Assembly: GCF_041146345.1 (NCBI RefSeq)
Contig: NW_027191411.1
Location: 434,001-498,000 of the forward strand
DNA: 64,000 bases
Direction of reading: 5' to 3'
Source: Neodothiora populina
Lineage: Eukaryota
Shown here: positions 39,432-47,970 of the stretch, piece by piece
How positions within the stretch are numbered: the first letter of the stretch is position 1
Layout: the number at the start of each line of letters is the position of its first letter
The notes under the pieces: generated by a model
What the model saw: only the letters and a program-made list of their open reading frames with translations
Databases searched by the model: none
Told to the model about the DNA's origin: nothing
Made by a program: the position numbers and the translations under genes

Positions 39432-41414
39432 CTATACATCGTACCTGATCCACTCTCTCATCGGCGGTATCTCAGGCATAACTCCATCCTTGAACGTCCC
39501 TGTCTCCCTTACAAATGCGTAAGCCGCCTCCAATATAGCGTCATACACTTCAGGTCGGGGGTCTTGAAGGTCAGGATTTGGCGGCGGTGGACCGTCGGGA
39601 AGCCATATCCGTTCCCACGAGCCGTCGGCCTTCCTATAATATGGGGCTGAAGGCTGCCCAGCGTCACCCATATATTGTACTGGTGCGTTCTTCCAGTTAG
39701 TGAGCTTGTTATTGCCATCCCGGCGTGTGTAAGTCGATGGGTCCGGGGAATTCAATGGACCTGTCGGCTGCAGAGGGTGGGCTGATCCATTACTCTGCGT
39801 CGATTGGGCCTGACCAAAAGGTGATGGGCTCGCAGCTTGCGGCGCTGCGCCGAATGGTGATTGCGATGGTTTCGACGGTTGGCCGAACGGTGATGGAGCT
39901 GATGGTTGTCCGAAAGCTGGAGCCGCAGCTTGGCCAAATGCAGACTGCTGCTGTGAGATCGGATTCTGCTGTGGTTGTGACGGGGCGCCGAAGGGGCTGG
40001 GATTGGCTGGCTGACTGGCACCCAAGGACAATGGTTGACCGAAAGCACTTGGTTGGCCATCAGGATTTGATGCCTGACCGAATGGGCTACTCGATTGATT
40101 GTTTACGGGTTGGCTGGGCTGACCAAATGCGGAAGCTTGACCGAATCCTCCAGATGTATTTGACGCGGGCGCTGCTGAAGCGAACGGGGAAGCCTGATTC
40201 GAAGGCTGACTTGCTTGACCGAATGCACCACTTCCCTGTGAGGCCTGACCGAATGGACTTGGCCGTTGGCCAGGATCTGATGCCTGGCCGAAAGCTGATT
40301 GACGGAACGCTGGCTTTCCGAGCGCGTTCATCTGGCCGGGTGCGGAAGGCTGTCCAAATGCACCACCTTGGCTCGTGGCGGCAGGCTGTCCCCAGGGCGA
40401 CTTAGCACCAAGTGCGGCCACTTGACCGAATCCGCCGGATTGCCCAGGGGCTGAGGGTTGACCAAAGGCACTACCTTGGGCTGGAGCTGATGGTTGCCCG
40501 AATGCGCTACCTTGTGTCGAGGTCGAAGCCTGGCCAAAAGCACTACCGTGACCCGGCATAGACGGTTGGCCAAACCCACTACTTTGCCCAGGGGCCGAGG
40601 GCTGACCGAAGGCACTTCCTTGAGCAAGAGATGATGGCTGGCCGAATGCTGTGTTCTGCCCGAGAGCTGAGGGCTGCCCAAAACCACCTGGCTGACTTGG
40701 AGCACCAAAGGCCGGTGCACCGAAGGCTGGTTTCGGTGCTGCAGCACCAAAAGCCGAGGGCTGTCCAAAGGCTGGCCCCGAAGGTGTGATGCTGCTGACT
40801 GGAGGTTGCGGATGCATCGGCTGAGTTCCGGCACCAGGCTTCAAGCACATGTCAAGACGATTAGGATGCTCGTCTTTCCCAGCTAGAACGTATTGAATTG
40901 CACCGTCTAGATTGCTCAAGACTTGCTGTACTTGTTGGTTAGATCGAGCCAGCAGTTCTTCTTCTTTTTGAATATATGCTTGGACACTGCCTTGAGCTTG
41001 AGCGAGATAGAACATCAGTCGCATCTCCTCGAAACTTTGCTCAAGCGGAAGACCACCAAAAAGCTGTCTCGGGGCATCTCGGCCAGGACCATAAGCAGAC
41101 AGTGGCCATTCCGGCCGGTCGTTTCTCAAATCAGTCTCGATGCCTTCCTTAGTCATGAGATAGGGGAGAGGCTGTTGGCCTTGTTGATTTGATCCTGGTC
41201 GATAATGGTCGCCACGTGCCAAGCCAGACGGACGATTGTTGTTGTTGTTGTTATTATTGCGAGCATTATTATTGCTCAATGCAGCGAACGAGTTCTGGTC
41301 TCCTTGAGGTTGATTGGCACCTGGATGTTCATATTTGCAGGCATTCCCGAACTTGCAACGACCTTGCTGGTAGAATCTGCAGACATTGCTATTTTGCTGG
41401 CCTCGACCAAACAT
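39432..41414 (-). CDS. NUP42: CCCH zinc-finger FG nucleoporin (Nup42/Amo1/hCG1 family)
   Basis: CRFYQQGRCKFGNACKYEH CCCH finger, RPEWPLSAYGP..EQSFEEMR, many SAFGQP/SPFG repeats, and a C-terminal F..G.MPEIPP motif. Confidence 0.88.
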   Translation of the reverse strand: MFGRGQQNSNVCRFYQQGRCKFGNACKYEHPGANQPQGDQNSFAALSNNNARNNNNNNNNRPSGLARGDHYRPGSNQQGQQPLPYLMTKEGIETDLRNDRPEWPLSAYGPGRDAPRQLFGGLPLEQSFEEMRLMFYLAQAQGSVQAYIQKEEELLARSNQQVQQVLSNLDGAIQYVLAGKDEHPNRLDMCLKPGAGTQPMHPQPPVSSITPSGPAFGQPSAFGAAAPKPAFGAPAFGAPSQPGGFGQPSALGQNTAFGQPSSLAQGSAFGQPSAPGQSSGFGQPSMPGHGSAFGQASTSTQGSAFGQPSAPAQGSAFGQPSAPGQSGGFGQVAALGAKSPWGQPAATSQGGAFGQPSAPGQMNALGKPAFRQSAFGQASDPGQRPSPFGQASQGSGAFGQASQPSNQASPFASAAPASNTSGGFGQASAFGQPSQPVNNQSSSPFGQASNPDGQPSAFGQPLSLGASQPANPSPFGAPSQPQQNPISQQQSAFGQAAAPAFGQPSAPSPFGQPSKPSQSPFGAAPQAASPSPFGQAQSTQSNGSAHPLQPTGPLNSPDPSTYTRRDGNNKLTNWKNAPVQYMGDAGQPSAPYYRKADGSWERIWLPDGPPPPNPDLQDPRPEVYDAILEAAYAFVRETGTFKDGVMPEIPPMREWIRYDV

Positions 41415-42258
41415 GATGAGCGCAGCAGCTATAGACTTATCTGGAACATATGCGGCATTGGTGAGCACGAATCACCATGTACCAGGCAGTAGACCTTGTG
41501 TAGCGATGGAAACCACAGAGCAGTAGCTGTATATCAGATCTGTAAGGCAGCTAGCTGTATGTGAGATGCTTCACTCATAAAAGCATACACCAGGCGGGCA
41601 AGCAAGACCGCGGACGCGATACGTCCGTGCTCAGAAATCGCAGACTGCAAACGGCGCATACAAAACACAAAGAGTCCGTCTCCGTCTGACTTGTTAATTA
41701 GCCCTTATTGGCGCAGAGAACGAAATTATATTACGGCTGGCTGACGAAGGAGACCAGTCGCGCACTTCTCGTGAACTTTGTGTACGAGTCCTTTGTATGT
41801 TGTCGTCACCATAACATGCCGCATGGTGCATGCGCCCGCACTTTTCTCCGTCAAATCTGGCGCAAACATAGCATTCAAGGGGTCCTTTTCTTTGGCGTCG
41901 AGATCTTCCACTTTTTCTGTGTAGATTAAAGCATCTATTGACCAATTGATAACTGGCTGCCCATTGCACATTGCTTCGCGGCTTCGATCACCCAGTAATC
42001 GTCCACGTGCTGTATACTTTGGTCATACCGCGTCCCACGCTTTCGCTGTCTTGCTAGCTGTCGCATATCCTCAAGACACGGCCAAACCTCTAAGCCCCGT
42101 TCCTCTTTCTGATTAATCATTGCCTCTTCTCCACGTTTCAAATCTCCATCTCTTCCCCTCCAACTGCCAAGAGGAGAGAGAGAGAGAGAGACAACGCGCC
42201 AGAGACCCACGTCGACGACAGCACATGGTCGCCCTCAGGTCATGAAGCGTGCCATCCT

Positions 42259-42743
42259 ATGCACCCATTCTCTGTCCTTACCCTTGGCATATTTGTAGCC
42301 GGCTATATCACCGCCCGCTGGGATCTCGTCACCAGACTCTATGAGCTTGCCATTTTCGCTTGGGATCACGGTGTCATTGTAAGTCGCATTCGAGCTCGTT
42401 GTTACTACCCTTGAGCAGTGTTGTTTCATACATGTTCATGCCCTTTGCAAACACGCCGCAACATAAAAACCAGCGATGATTGACGGACGCATGTACGCGC
42501 ATATACATTTCTGACGGCTTCCCCCAGACACGCTGTATCAAAGGCTTCATAGTGCTCTCTATCTTCTTCCTCGTCGTCATAATCCCCATTGGGCGCATTG
42601 CCGCAATAGAGGCCGACACAGTCAGTTCACACTGCGATCCCGATATACATCCAGGACGTCATCCTGACACCAGCAAGCATCCTCGGTCAAGAGCTCTAGG
42701 TCTATCCGCGCGCGAACAGTTGAAGCGAAGAGGGTCTTTCTAG
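42259..42743 (+). CDS. Spliced ~92-aa two-TM microprotein immediately upstream of GPI1
   Basis: Exon 1 42259-42378 (MHPFSVLTLGIFVAGYITARWDLVTRLYELAIFAWDHGVI); intron GTAAGT..CTGAC..CAG 42379-42527; exon 2 TRCIKGFIVLSIFFLVVIIPIGRIAAIEADT; probable in-frame intron 42621-42677; last exon HPRSRALGLSAREQLKRRGSF*. Confidence 0.75.
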
Positions 42744-42762
42744 CTGCTATCGACATGGTAGC

Positions 42763-45113
42763 ATGGTTACGCACAATGGGTTGATGCGCATTTTCTGGCC
42801 GACAGATATCGCAAATACCACCAAGTCGGGCGTCATCGTAGGATGGCGTAATTCGGAACTCGACGTTGTCGTCGTTGCTATCCTCTTCGACGTGGAGGTC
42901 AGTGGCATCGAATGCGACATGGAAGCTGGACCATTTCTGATTCTTTCTGTTAGGCACGCAATGTTGACACTGCTCTGAAAATGGGACTCTTGTATCGAGG
43001 CAGCCCACACCCAATCCATCAATTGACCGACAGATGTGGTGAAAAGTCTTTGGAGGTCCTAGGAGCACTCAACCCCCGCACCACTCCCCTTGTCTTCAAC
43101 GCTGCCTCGTTCGCAGCCTACACGACTCCTGGCAATCGCATGCCTCAGGTGTATTGTTGCGAAGATGGCAAATACACATTACAGATCATCACTTTTGATC
43201 GTCCAGATCCCCATCGGATGCAGTATCTGTCTTTGTCGCCCATATCGCTTACCCTAGGAGACAGATCCAGCAATTCTGAGCTGGCAGATGAGATTACTGG
43301 TGAAGAAGAGGCTGCTGAGAAGAAGCGCAAGCAGAAGCTCGTGGAGAAGCTTCGATTGCATACCGTGATACGCCAGCCGCGAACGCTCAAGGAGATGGCG
43401 CTTCCGGTGATAATCAATCAGATCAACTGCTCGTACGAGATGAATCAACTCCTGCAAAAAAACGTTGGCCTCGTAGGCCTCCGTTCCAAACGAGCCTTGA
43501 GCGTGAGTGAGAAATTCGTCGAGTCTGCCACAGATCTTTGGGACTATGCTCAGTTCGGTTTACGTCACACTTTTGACGCATATGTGTACCCAGTCCTCGC
43601 TCAACTACTCATCCTTGCTTTGGTACTGCACCGAATGGCAGGCGAAGTCTTGCTGCGCATCCTGGAATGGCGATTATTGCCCGATTATGCGGCGCTCAAG
43701 GACATTTCCGCAACCGCTCAGCAGGTAGATATGCGCCTCCAGCAATTCTGTTATTGGCCCATCCAGTACATTACCTTGCGCAAACGACGTACGAACTGGG
43801 GCAGTATCACCAATAGCCACCCGGAGTACATTCGCTTCTACAACAGTCTTTGGCTGGTAGCAAACGACATCATTATCGGCATAGCACTGGGCTCATATAT
43901 CATTGAAAACTCACATCTTGTCGCTGGTCAAGTAGATAATATTGTCAGCTCCTGGTTTGTCGAGGGTCTTCAGCGTATGATTTCCTGGTTGACTGACTAT
44001 CCTGCGGGACTGAAACTGAACACTGAGCTCGCTCACTTCCTGGGTGATTTGTTCCTGTGGGTAATTGAGTACTGGGCTGGTAAGACGATGCAAACCCCTG
44101 ATACCTGTCGCTTGTCTAATGTTCTCCTAGGTTGCATGCAAAGCCTTCGACCAGCCCTTCCAGGCATCATTCGTTTCATAGGCTTCTCCAGTTTCGCAGG
44201 TGCCAGCATGCCTGTCTCGCTTTTCTCGGATCTGACGTCTATACTCACATTGCACATATATGCCTTCTATATTGCATCCGCGCGCATCTATAGCTGGCAA
44301 TTGACCATTATCGTGTCACTCTTCCATCTCTTTCGAGGCAAGAAACGCAATATCCTGCGCAATCGAATCGACTCCTGCGATTATGATCTTGATCAATTGC
44401 TATTGGGAACCATACTGTTCACGTTGCTGGCTTTCCTTCTTCCCACAGTCGGCGTCTTCTACGCAACCTTCGCCAGCGCTAGAATGGGTATCATCGTGCT
44501 CAAAGCAGCATTAGATACGTGGCTGGCTTGCTTGAACCATTTCCCGCTCTTCGCGCTGATGTTACGGTTGAAGGATTCGCGTCGCTTACCAGGTAAGTTC
44601 TGTCACGTAAGGTTATTCCGAAAGGTCGCTAATCAATATTTAGGTGGCATCCAATTTGATTTGTTGAATTGCCCTACTACAAACCGTCCTACCGAGCAGT
44701 ATCAGCCGACTGGCCGACCAACCGCGCCGACTTCGCATATCAAGCTCAATGTAAGATGTATGCAGCCAAGCTTCCTTTGACCGCTCTCTGACTCCGCATA
44801 GTCCGTCCCGCTGCCCTTTTCGCAGACATTCTCACAGTATGCACAACTCGAGCACCGCATTCGTAAGCATTACTTATCACCACGCGTGTTCTTCCGGCTT
44901 TTCACGGGTCGCTTCGTCCCGCCCATTCATCGAAAAAGTCTGTACAGCTTGCAGTATAGCATGCTCCCGGCAAGACGCATACCTGTTATGGAGTTGTGGA
45001 ATCTGCTGATGGATCGGAAATTTGCGAAGGACAAGGCAAATGGTGCGCCGAGCACATCTCTACCGCGTCGCGGTCACAGGCAGAAGACCAGGGCGCACTG
45101 GTGGAGCCAATAG
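42763..45113 (+). CDS. GPI1: GPI-N-acetylglucosaminyltransferase subunit Gpi1 / PIG-Q
   Basis: MRIFWP..GVIVGWRNS start, YIRFYNSLWLVANDII.G, PAGLKLN.EL, LFRGKKRN.LRNRIDS..YDLDQLLLGT and LNHFPLF; several introns. Confidence 0.95.
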
Positions 45114-45566: not shown

Positions 45567-47970
45567 ATGTTGACCATTTCTGCTCTGGCACTCGCTTGCG
45601 CGGGTGTGGCTGGAGCCAGACGACTCCCACCTCGACAAGCTGTGAATGCCTCCCTCGATGGCTCGTTGCCCTCGTACATGTCATATATCAATGCGACAAA
45701 AAATGACAATTCACCTGTGACATTAAAGATCGATACGAGCGATAAATCTGCGCGGAACGCTACTTCTCCATATCTCTATGGATTGATGCATGAGGTATGA
45801 TCTGCAGCTTCTGACTGGCCTTCATTTGCTTATATAGATAATCAGGACATTAATCATTCTGGTGATGGCGGCATCTACGCAGAGATGATTGCCAATCGGG
45901 CTTTCCAAGGTGAGATGAGCTGGTAGTCTGTACGAAACATGTACTGAGACCAGTATAGGCTCTACTGCGGACTTCTCTCTAGTCAAGGGCTACGATGGTA
46001 CCTTTGTCATTCCTGAATTGTCAGAAAACCCTATTGTACCCTTCGCTCCAACGCCTGATGCTTGGGCAACGATCGGGCATGGTGTTCGGATGACTCTGGA
46101 CATTACGCACCCTCTCTCCAATGCTCTGCATGTCTCTATGCAGATTGATATCCCTCAGAACGCCACAGGGGAAGTCGGATTCAAAAACTTCGGTTTGTAT
46201 CGCCAGACCCTCTTCACTCATCGATGGACTAATCACTTCAGGCTGGTGGGGATTTGACGTTCATCCGCAGCAATACAATGTATCTTTCTGGGCATTGTCG
46301 AACTATCCTCGCAACCCCAATGGCACTGCTGTAACTTTCACTACGTCTTTCCGACGAAACGACACCGGTGCTGTGCTTGCATCGTCACAAATACCTAATG
46401 TCATCTTGCCATATCTTGACTTCGTGCAATTGAACACTACTCTTTACCCTAATGTCACTGCACCCGATCAGAACAACACGTTTGCAGTCACCATGGATGG
46501 AGCGCAGGTGGCAGGACAGACTTTCTATTTCAATCTGGTTTCCGTCTTCCCAGAGACATTCAAGGGATACAAGAATGGACTGCGTCCTGATATTGCCGGT
46601 GCTTTCAACGACATTTCGCCGCGTTTCTTGCGTTTCCCTGGTGGAAACAACCTCGAAGGATACAGCCCGCAGCAAAGATGGAAGTGGTGGGAGACAATTG
46701 GCCCCCTCAAGGACCGCCCCGGACGACCTGGTGACTGGACCTACTTCAACACAAACGGACTTGGTCTGCTTGAATATCTTGAGTGGACAGAGGCAATGAA
46801 CATTGAGCCAGTGCTCGCTGTCTATGCTGGCTTTTCTCTCGATATCTACGGTCAAAGCGGTGTATCGTACCCGGAGGACCGCATGGGTGAAATCCTCCAA
46901 GAAGCTATTGAGGAGCTAGAGTACTGTATGGGCGATGTGTCGACCACTTGGGGAGCCAGACGCGCTGCAGATGGTCATCCAGAACCATTCAAGATCAGCT
47001 TTGTTGAGATCGGAAACGAGGACTGGTTCAGTACGACTTACCCGTACCGCTGGGAGTTCATGTACAATGGTCTCAAGGCAGCACACCCCAACATCACCTA
47101 CATCAGCACCGCATTCGACGAGAACTCGCTGTACAACATCTCCATCCCCGCAGGCGGCATGTGGGATTGGCACACTTACCAGGAACCCAGCTGGTTCGTC
47201 AGTAACTTTGACCAGTGGGACAACTGGCAAAAAGAAACCAACAACACAGATGTGAGTATTCTTCTCGGAGAATACAGTGTGATCCAGATCGACACGCCTT
47301 CCGGTGTAATCAACTACAGCTACCCACTCGACTCTCACGTCTTCTATCCTCGCCTTGTTTCTGCCATTGCAGAAGGCGTCTACGCTATCGGTGCTGAGCG
47401 TAACCCCAACACCGTCAAGATGAGCAGCTATGCGCCCAGTCTGCAACACCTGAACTTCACGAACTGGACACCAGACATGATCGCCTACACCGCTCAGCAG
47501 GACGAGACAGTCAAAAGCGCGAGCTACTGGCAACAGTGGATGTTTGCACACTACCGTGGAACCGAGACGTTGCCAGTGACTGGAGAGCTCAACCCGCTCT
47601 ATTGGGTTGCTAGTATTGATGGAGAGAAGAATGCAATTTATCTCAAGGTAAGCCCAGGCTCACGTGTAATACTACCACAAAACCGTTCGTCCTAACAATA
47701 CGTGCTGCACAGGTCATCAATACCCTCAACGCTACCGTTCCCCTGACAGTTGATATCACTCAGCCCTTTACCAACGTCAACGGCACCATCTTGACCGCAG
47801 CGGACTTGAACTCGTATAACTTTGTGAATAACCAGACAGAAGTGGTACCCAAGCCTTTGTCGCTTCCATCCGGCGGTTCTTATGCCAAACACGGTAACTC
47901 GAGTGAAGGGGGCAGCTGGACTTGGGATGTACCCAAGTGGAGTATTACTGTCTTGCAATTCGATTTGTAG
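45567..47970 (+). CDS. abfA: Secreted alpha-L-arabinofuranosidase, glycoside hydrolase family 51
   Basis: Signal peptide, YGLMHE|DINHSGDGGIYAE, FLRFPGGNNLEG, EIGNED (acid/base), GEY (nucleophile) and ERN...M.SYAP; several introns. Confidence 0.92.

Follow-up and report, generated by a model that had tools for sequence, protein, structure and literature searches.

The window analysed here is a 64,000-nucleotide (nt) stretch of the Neodothiora populina genome (NCBI RefSeq assembly GCF_041146345.1, contig NW_027191411.1, positions 434,001 to 498,000 of the forward strand); coordinates count from its first letter. Its plus strand carries a three-exon open reading frame (ORF) at 42259–42743, whose spliced product is a microprotein of 92 amino acids (aa), and, 19 nt further on, GPI1, which encodes the PIG-Q subunit of the glycosylphosphatidylinositol (GPI) N-acetylglucosaminyltransferase (GPI-GnT). 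Here we describe this pair of genes and its counterparts in other Pezizomycotina, which probably constitute a bicistronic locus. The two genes are laid out as follows.

42253–42262, plus strand: start context of the microprotein ORF, with C at −3 (42256) and C at +4 (42262), a weak Kozak context
42259–42378, plus strand: microprotein exon 1, codons 1–40; a first hydrophobic helix, then a second, less hydrophobic helix
42379–42527, plus strand: microprotein intron 1, 149 nt, phase 0, GTAAGT...CAG, with a CTGAC branch site
42528–42620, plus strand: microprotein exon 2, codons 41–71 (31 codons); the main transmembrane helix
42621–42677, plus strand: microprotein intron 2, 57 nt, in frame here, GTCAGT...AAG, with a CTGAC branch site
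42678–42743, plus strand: microprotein exon 3, codons 72–92, HPR...SAREQLKRRGSF; stop codon TAG at 42741–42743
42744–42762, plus strand: inter-ORF spacer, 19 nt from the microprotein TAG to the GPI1 ATG
42763–42897, plus strand: GPI1 exon 1; the first ATG (ATG1) at 42763 has A at −3 and G at +4, and a second in-frame ATG (ATG2) at 42784 opens MRIFWP
42954–44079, 44131–44592, 44644–44750 and 44802–45113, plus strand: GPI1 exons 2–5 of the joined GPI1 model

Once spliced, the ORF encodes 92 aa that are 100% identical to P0061, which NCBI/RefSeq lists as a ‘hypothetical protein’ of N. populina and UniRef as ‘Phosphatidylinositol glycan, class Q’; the public annotation already contains the microprotein gene model. 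Intron 2 is real, because its removal yields exactly P0061. A first-pass annotation, made from the sequence alone, had described a spliced ORF with good splice signals and a product of about 92 aa, or 111 aa if intron 2 is retained. The exon and intron coordinates and the identity to P0061 bear out the 92-aa form; the 111-aa intron-retention form is rejected as the main product, since the conserved HPR...RRGSF exon is reachable by splicing alone and the length of intron 2 in many other taxa (44–55 nt) is not a multiple of 3. The same annotation had placed the microprotein stop at 42741–42743 and the GPI1 ATG at 42763 on the same strand, and both are found there.

At 149 nt, intron 1 of the window is longer than at the other loci that have this intron (48–114 nt). 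Loss of one intron or of both has occurred in several lineages. The microprotein gene has neither intron in L005 and L008, which are long genomic contigs, and intron 2 alone in L050 and L035.

Kyte–Doolittle hydropathy agrees with the two hydrophobic segments initially noticed in the sequence, which span residues ~4–18 (scores 1.5–1.9) and ~45–65 (2–3.2). AlphaFold2, run with a 20-sequence alignment, predicted helices at residues 2–18, 21–36, 39–71 and 82–88, with a mean predicted local distance difference test score (pLDDT) of 83 and a score of ~90 for the helices at 2–18 and 21–36. The predicted model can be summed up as three helices plus a basic tail.

The GPI1 ATG at 42763 shares its frame with MVTHNGLMRIFWP and the Pfam Gpi1 domain (PF05024, E 2e-108). 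The five-exon GPI1 model encodes 713 aa with no internal stop, and its introns are 51–56 nt long with GT..AG boundaries. The encoded protein shares 56% identity (tblastn) with the Gpi1 encoded by L041, a metatranscriptome contig described below. We found no solved structure of any Gpi1 homolog.

The microprotein is widely conserved. A database search with exon 1 returned 1016 proteins, with 90–100% identity among the 120 matches listed, and many of the full-length database entries are 92 aa long. Named members belong to Eurotiomycetes, Dothideomycetes, Leotiomycetes and Sordariomycetes, and to Orbilia and Morchella, covering at least six classes of Pezizomycotina. With the divergent member P0199 as the query, all named proteins among the 120 matches listed were Pezizomycotina. 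A representative search gave 255 proteins at E up to 0.001 (best 150 shown); the ten that we inspected were members of the same family, or mis-spliced or fused models of them. An alignment of 11 orthologs has 58 invariant positions, including most of residues 2–42 and the C-terminal SAREQL[KR]RRGSF.

In the spliced microprotein ORFs that we rebuilt from 72 sources, codons 40 and 71 are repeatedly followed by introns, often with lengths that are not a multiple of 3, and the intron after codon 40 is present in most two-intron loci. Purifying selection on the microprotein is strong. Comparison of synonymous and non-synonymous change, a check suggested in the first-pass annotation, places the peptide under protein-level selection: among 43 non-redundant ORFs of 279 nt, the median proportion of differences was 0.76 at synonymous sites (pS), which is near saturation, and 0.17 at non-synonymous sites (pN), with a pN of 0.10 over residues 2–40. 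The C-terminal SAREQL[KR]RRGSF is invariant in 43/43 sequences, although every synonymous codon is in use there, so the constraint acts on the protein and not on the RNA. This free use of synonymous codons rules out RNA-level constraint as the source of C-terminal conservation.

Two features of codon usage were recorded in passing. The stop codon of 47 orthologous ORFs is TAG in 34, TGA in 10 and TAA in 3. His2 (42/42 sequences) and His37 (37/37) are invariably CAC, but His72 may be either CAT (26) or CAC (16).

GPI1 is the constant neighbor of the microprotein gene. A metagenome scan seeded on exon 1 yielded 320 candidate stretches, of which 225 were confirmed; 80 loci were retained. By tblastn, GPI1 exon 1 comes immediately after the microprotein ORF, on the same strand, in 75 of them; in the other five, the contig stops within ~50 nt of the microprotein ORF. 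Peptide sequence and synteny, both of which the first-pass annotation had marked for checking, are conserved, with GPI1 adjacent in 75/75 loci that extend far enough. In the annotated genome of Cladosporium halotolerans, the microprotein gene and GPI1 have consecutive locus tags. The 1016 homologs, the purifying selection and the conserved adjacency together establish, far beyond chance, that the microprotein is real.

The distance between the two ORFs is short throughout. The spacer between the microprotein stop and the first in-frame ATG of GPI1 measures 6–63 nt (median 20) across 44 non-redundant loci, and its length varies over all three frames. A spacer of this size leaves no room for a terminator plus a promoter, as had been argued earlier from the 19-nt gap in the window.

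Metatranscriptome contigs from relatives span both ORFs. L041 (2669 nt) aligns in four blocks with the Alternaria-like genomic contig L050, at 99.4–100% identity. Exactly three short pieces of L050 are missing from it, namely the intron of the microprotein ORF (L050 3714–3767) and two pieces within GPI1, and it carries both ORFs complete (178–456 and 477–2612). L048 is a copy of the genomic contigs L035/L032 minus four introns; it begins at microprotein codon 15, the first 14 codons being absent. Both L041 and L048 are 99–100% identical to genomic contigs. L001 is the spliced form of a relative of L026, and L014, L025 and L023 are intron-free copies of both full ORFs, with L014 and L025 being mRNA-sized. 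The spliced transcript contigs retain the microprotein stop codon and the spacer. The dicistronic mRNA proposed in the first-pass annotation thus gains support in relatives, from the spacer, the spliced contigs over both ORFs and the start contexts described next; this support comes from species other than N. populina.

The two start codons differ consistently in context. Among 47 non-redundant loci, position −3 of the microprotein ATG is T in 41 and C in 6, with a purine in 0/47, and position +4 is C in 46 and A in 1, with G in 0/47. Bases vary at positions −9 to −4 and at −1, and T is somewhat favored at −2 (24/47). By comparison, ATG1 of GPI1 has a purine at −3 in 39/44 loci. The microprotein ORFs are also poor in further start codons. 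No internal Met occurs in 4275 residues, and out-of-frame ATGs number 0.94 per microprotein coding sequence against 1.53 expected. The expectation was obtained by synonymous resampling with GPI1 codon usage; 0/500 resamples were as low, a figure that comes from related sequences and so is not a probability. His37-Gly38 (CAT GGN) is the sole codon pair able to make a strong-context ATG, which is realized in 0/38 sequences, while a weak-context ATG at Tyr28-Glu29 is tolerated in 28/43. Judged by sequence, a weak start on the first ORF combined with a stronger start on the second is the signature that a leaky-scanning bicistron would be expected to leave.

Two small out-of-frame ORFs surround the GPI1 start in the window.

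42755–42784, plus strand: out-of-frame ORF of 9 codons that begins 8 nt before ATG1 (G at −3, G at +4); its TGA (42782–42784) overlaps ATG2
42776–42784, plus strand: nested, out-of-frame mini-ORF ATG GGT TGA at +13 from ATG1 (purine at −3, G at +4), with a stop that overlaps ATG2 in the form TGATG

The nested mini-ORF is nearly universal: an out-of-frame ATG stands at +13 in 41/44 loci, a further 2 have it at +16, and its −3 position is almost always a purine. The mini-ORF that it opens has 2–3 codons and ends upon ATG2 in 37 loci, as TGATG in 26 and ATGA in 11. ATG2 itself (MRIFWP) is present in 38/44 loci, 21 nt downstream of ATG1 in 36 and 24 nt in 2, and has a weak context, with a pyrimidine at −3 in 37/38. 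Codon 5 of GPI1 may encode N, D or H but is usually NAT, a bias that suggests selection at the nucleotide level. The +13 mini-ORF may be a catch-and-release element that passes ribosomes that missed ATG1 on to ATG2.

We put the probability at about 60% that this is a bicistronic locus conserved across Pezizomycotina, in which a single mRNA carries both ORFs and GPI1 is reached by leaky scanning. For N. populina, we infer that a single promoter upstream of 42259 would drive one pre-mRNA; once spliced, it would carry the 92-codon microprotein ORF followed after 19 nt by the GPI1 ORF. The microprotein AUG is kept in the weakest possible context, with a pyrimidine at −3 and C at +4, at the head of an ORF that contains no internal Met codon and avoids strong-context out-of-frame AUGs. 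Given the weak start and this avoidance of AUGs, some scanning 40S subunits could bypass the microprotein AUG and initiate at the GPI1 AUG, with its purine at −3. Leaky scanning is the most likely mechanism. Both products would then be real proteins made at a fixed ratio. The microprotein would most likely be a partner or regulator of Gpi1 or GPI-GnT in the membrane of the endoplasmic reticulum (ER), with its invariant basic C-terminal tail (...RRRGSF) probably on the cytosolic side.

Several observations weigh against this interpretation. AUG depletion is incomplete: 35/47 microprotein ORFs keep one or two out-of-frame ATGs, and there are ~1.2 ATGs in the 100 nt upstream of the microprotein ATG. 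An out-of-frame ATG with a purine at −3 also stands at −8 of GPI1 ATG1 in 24/44 loci. The locus counts were obtained on related sequences and lack independence. The transcript contigs were assembled from short metatranscriptome reads and represent continuous spliced RNA over both ORFs rather than single molecules. L048 is chimeric at its 5′ end, where nt 1–114 do not match the fungal genomic locus and instead resemble the beginning of a chloroplast psbA mRNA from a plant. This chimera calls for caution with all contig-based transcript evidence. The search seeded on exon 1 is, moreover, blind to GPI1-only transcripts that start inside the upstream gene. Short-read assemblies can fuse overlapping transcripts, as a Zymoseptoria study warns (10.1101/2023.04.26.537486).

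The least unlikely alternative is that the locus consists of two overlapping, independent transcription units. Transcription of GPI1 would start in intron 1 or exon 2 of the microprotein gene, whose own mRNA would end inside GPI1, and bicistronic molecules would be rare read-through or an assembly artefact. Overlapping untranslated regions are abundant in compact fungal genomes and are merged by short-read assemblies. The chimerism of L048 and the position of GPI1-only contigs beyond the reach of an exon-1-seeded search fit this alternative, and the unusually long intron 1 of the window (149 nt versus 48–114 nt) could hold regulatory sequence. Independent units leave unexplained, however, why the microprotein AUG is weak, why the GPI1 AUG has a purine at −3, why internal Met is entirely absent and why an ATG at His37-Gly38 is avoided. 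These features matter only if ribosomes pass the upstream ORF to reach GPI1 and therefore count against overlapping units, as does a spacer held at 6–63 nt across whole fungal classes. Next in line, and also unlikely, is a bicistronic mRNA from which Gpi1 is made by termination and reinitiation: 40S subunits would resume after the TAG and start at ATG1 or ATG2, helped by the mini-ORFs. The very short spacer (median 20 nt) and the preference for TAG as the microprotein stop (34/47) are in line with this, and so is the mini-ORF at +13 (+16 in two loci) whose stop lies over ATG2 in 37 loci, TGATG and ATGA being classic stop/start overlaps. Reinitiation after an ORF of 92 codons is, however, normally inefficient in eukaryotes. 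It also needs no weak upstream AUG, yet weak context is the most strictly conserved feature (47/47), and the last codons of the ORF show no nucleotide-level conservation that could mark a reinitiation element.

It is improbable that the upstream ORF (uORF) is chiefly cis-regulatory, with a conserved C-terminal peptide that stalls the ribosome near the stop codon and gates the GPI1 AUG, and no role for the peptide itself. The idea draws on the location of a peptide-conserved ORF in the leader of the main ORF's mRNA (in the contigs of relatives) and on the last 12 residues, SAREQL[KR]RRGSF, which are invariant, polybasic and end 6–63 nt before GPI1 ATG1; a ribosome stalled at that point would block scanning subunits. 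An arrest peptide requires only the residues in the exit tunnel, but conservation here is not confined to them: the N-terminal 40 residues are at least equally conserved (pN 0.10), and the ORF runs to 92 codons with a hydrophobic transmembrane helix and a confidently predicted three-helix fold. The suggestion in the first-pass annotation that the ORF might be merely a long conserved uORF is thus unlikely as the whole story, given protein-level selection over its full length and the AlphaFold2 pLDDT of 83, although a stall-peptide role and a protein role could coexist. It is very improbable that the microprotein exons form the 5′ part of the GPI1 coding sequence, with splicing or read-through yielding one fused protein. 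Database models do suggest this, since the microprotein forms the N-terminus of 25 of the best 120 Gpi1 database matches (P0243–P0362). Yet in the four fused models that we inspected, as in P0140 and P0147, the junction differs each time and conserved residues are missing. Both the stop codon and the spacer are present in the spliced contigs, spacer lengths occur in all three frames, and both the C-terminal exon of the microprotein and the N-terminal MRIFWP of Gpi1 are conserved. On the strength of these contigs, the three-frame spacers and the inconsistent junctions, we reject a fused microprotein-Gpi1 protein.

Homology searches offered little guide to what the microprotein does. The microprotein exons and 11 full-length orthologs matched no family in a scan of all Pfam-A (hmmscan, E up to 10), apart from one chance-level match to DUF6412. 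The Gpi1 domain PF05024 was likewise absent from the microprotein in the Pfam-A scan and lies in the downstream ORF. A wide VIA-align search gave generic helical matches alone (Z at most 5.9; root-mean-square deviation at least 9 Å for the top rows), and the ESM Atlas returned just the microprotein's own ‘pig-Q’ clusters.

Other results count against the functional side of our proposal. In the full Pfam-A scans at E up to 10, the microprotein did not match the families of PIG-Y (PF15159), PIG-P/Gpi19 or DPM2, so the idea that it is a subunit of the PIG-Y, PIG-P or DPM2 type, raised in the first-pass annotation, finds no direct support. A sequence profile search of the PDB with the microprotein at E up to 10 gave no match, and Foldseek with the microprotein model found 0 matches in the PDB. 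In human, the products of the PYURF/PIGY bicistron are functionally unrelated, so a shared mRNA is no proof of shared function. In Colletotrichum graminicola, the supplement of PMC8949851 lists GLRG_01976 as ERI1 and GLRG_02030 as GPI1; if these assignments are taken as listed there, the ERI1 candidate is not adjacent to GPI1 by locus-tag number, and the microprotein is thus probably not the Eri1 ortholog.

The case for a putative role in GPI-GnT is built on subphylum-wide linkage and on size class. It is unlikely, though conceivable from the sequence comparison, that the microprotein is an unrecognized, Pezizomycotina-specific subunit or regulator of GPI-GnT whose ratio to Gpi1 is hard-wired by a leaky-scanning bicistron. 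The basic tail is the most testable lead on function. Its ...RRRGSF-COOH end fits an RRxS kinase site, an Arg-based ER-retrieval signal and a C-terminal 14-3-3 motif.

The human PYURF(PreY)-PIGY locus resembles this one in that a bicistronic mRNA carries a small ORF and encodes a GPI-GnT subunit. There, the subunit is encoded by the small ORF in the downstream position (PIG-Y), and the product of the upstream ORF has no connection with GPI, whereas at the present locus the subunit is the large downstream ORF (Gpi1/PIG-Q); the two loci have no sequence similarity. The microprotein is like Eri1/PIG-Y, Gpi19/PIG-P and DPM2, described in PMC12182360 as V-shaped hairpins with two transmembrane segments, in its size class (92 aa), its two hydrophobic segments and its linkage to a GPI-GnT gene. 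It differs from them in having no Pfam match and a predicted model of three helices plus a basic tail. According to the same paper, an AlphaFold3 model of the human complex has PIG-P, PIG-Y and DPM2 in contact with PIG-A, and PIG-Q in contact with ARV1, PIG-C and PIG-H (PMC12182360). The human small subunits thus contact PIG-A rather than PIG-Q.

The closest parallel in mechanism is found in green algae, where conserved bicistronic loci are reported to be translated by leaky scanning (PMC7896298). The pattern of start contexts and AUGs has been tested experimentally there and is consistent with leaky scanning (PMC11892635). The algal loci have two ORFs on one capped mRNA, as is proposed for the present locus, and AUGs that are under-represented before ORF 2, as is seen in part here; further features in common are a very short spacer (14 nt in one algal example), a weak Kozak-like context for ORF 1 and a stronger one for ORF 2, a first ORF that often encodes a small membrane or complex subunit, and conservation over long evolutionary distances (PMC11892635). 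Unlike the algal cases, the fungal arrangement is found in Pezizomycotina, is a single locus rather than a genome-wide class, has only partial AUG depletion, contains extra conserved mini-ORFs and is known here from sequence comparison.

Fungal polycistronic transcripts have been described in Agaricomycetes (PMC4503453) and in a secondary-metabolite ‘operon’ of Glarea lozoyensis (PMC4471562), and these likewise involve adjacent same-strand genes on one transcript. In Zymoseptoria, polycistronic transcripts have been read as rare read-through of genes with their own mRNAs (10.1101/2023.04.26.537486). In contrast, the 6–63 nt spacer, the subphylum-wide conservation and the tuned start contexts of the GPI1 locus point to an obligate translated bicistron.

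A literature search covering openly licensed PMC papers and bioRxiv preprints found no description of the microprotein ORF or of a GPI1 bicistron. The bicistronic arrangement is rare in fungi and is often mishandled by gene annotation. The fusions among the Gpi1 database matches carry the microprotein N-terminally, with junctions that differ from model to model among those inspected. Many 92-aa entries are named ‘PIG-Q’ or ‘gpi1’ without containing a Gpi1 domain, a misnaming that probably stems from such fused gene models.

Fungi cannot do without GPI-anchor synthesis for their cell wall, and the pathway is an area for antifungal targets. The enzyme of its first step, a complex of many subunits, is poorly understood; its small membrane subunits have been added one by one, and a microprotein kept beside GPI1 from Orbilia and Morchella to Aspergillus and Fusarium is a candidate for a missing component or regulator. 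If the proposal is true, the locus would provide a clean, ancient and obligate bicistronic mRNA in fungi, where polycistronic transcripts are mostly dismissed as read-through, and it would extend the leaky-scanning model of green algae to fungi. The role of the microprotein is directly testable in Aspergillus nidulans or Neurospora crassa.

The region upstream of the microprotein gene is bounded by a divergent ORF.

41472–42258, no strand assigned: putative shared promoter and leader region, between the divergent minus-strand ORF at 39432–41471 and the microprotein ORF

This region of roughly 800 nt contains a CT-rich tract and a (GA)n run at ~42120–42192. Small upstream ATGs occur in the window at 42225, opening 6 codons, and at 42242, opening 18 codons that run over the microprotein ATG. 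At four other loci (L039, L041, L046 and L052), a 3-codon uORF (ATG ACG NTN TAR) lies 12 nt upstream and ends exactly at the microprotein ATG. The minus-strand ORF at 39432–41471, which is divergent from the microprotein gene, has a CCCH zinc-finger-like motif and many FG/GQPS repeats and looks nucleoporin-like. Downstream of GPI1, an open frame of 533 aa on the plus strand (46094–47695) appears glycoside hydrolase-like by eye.

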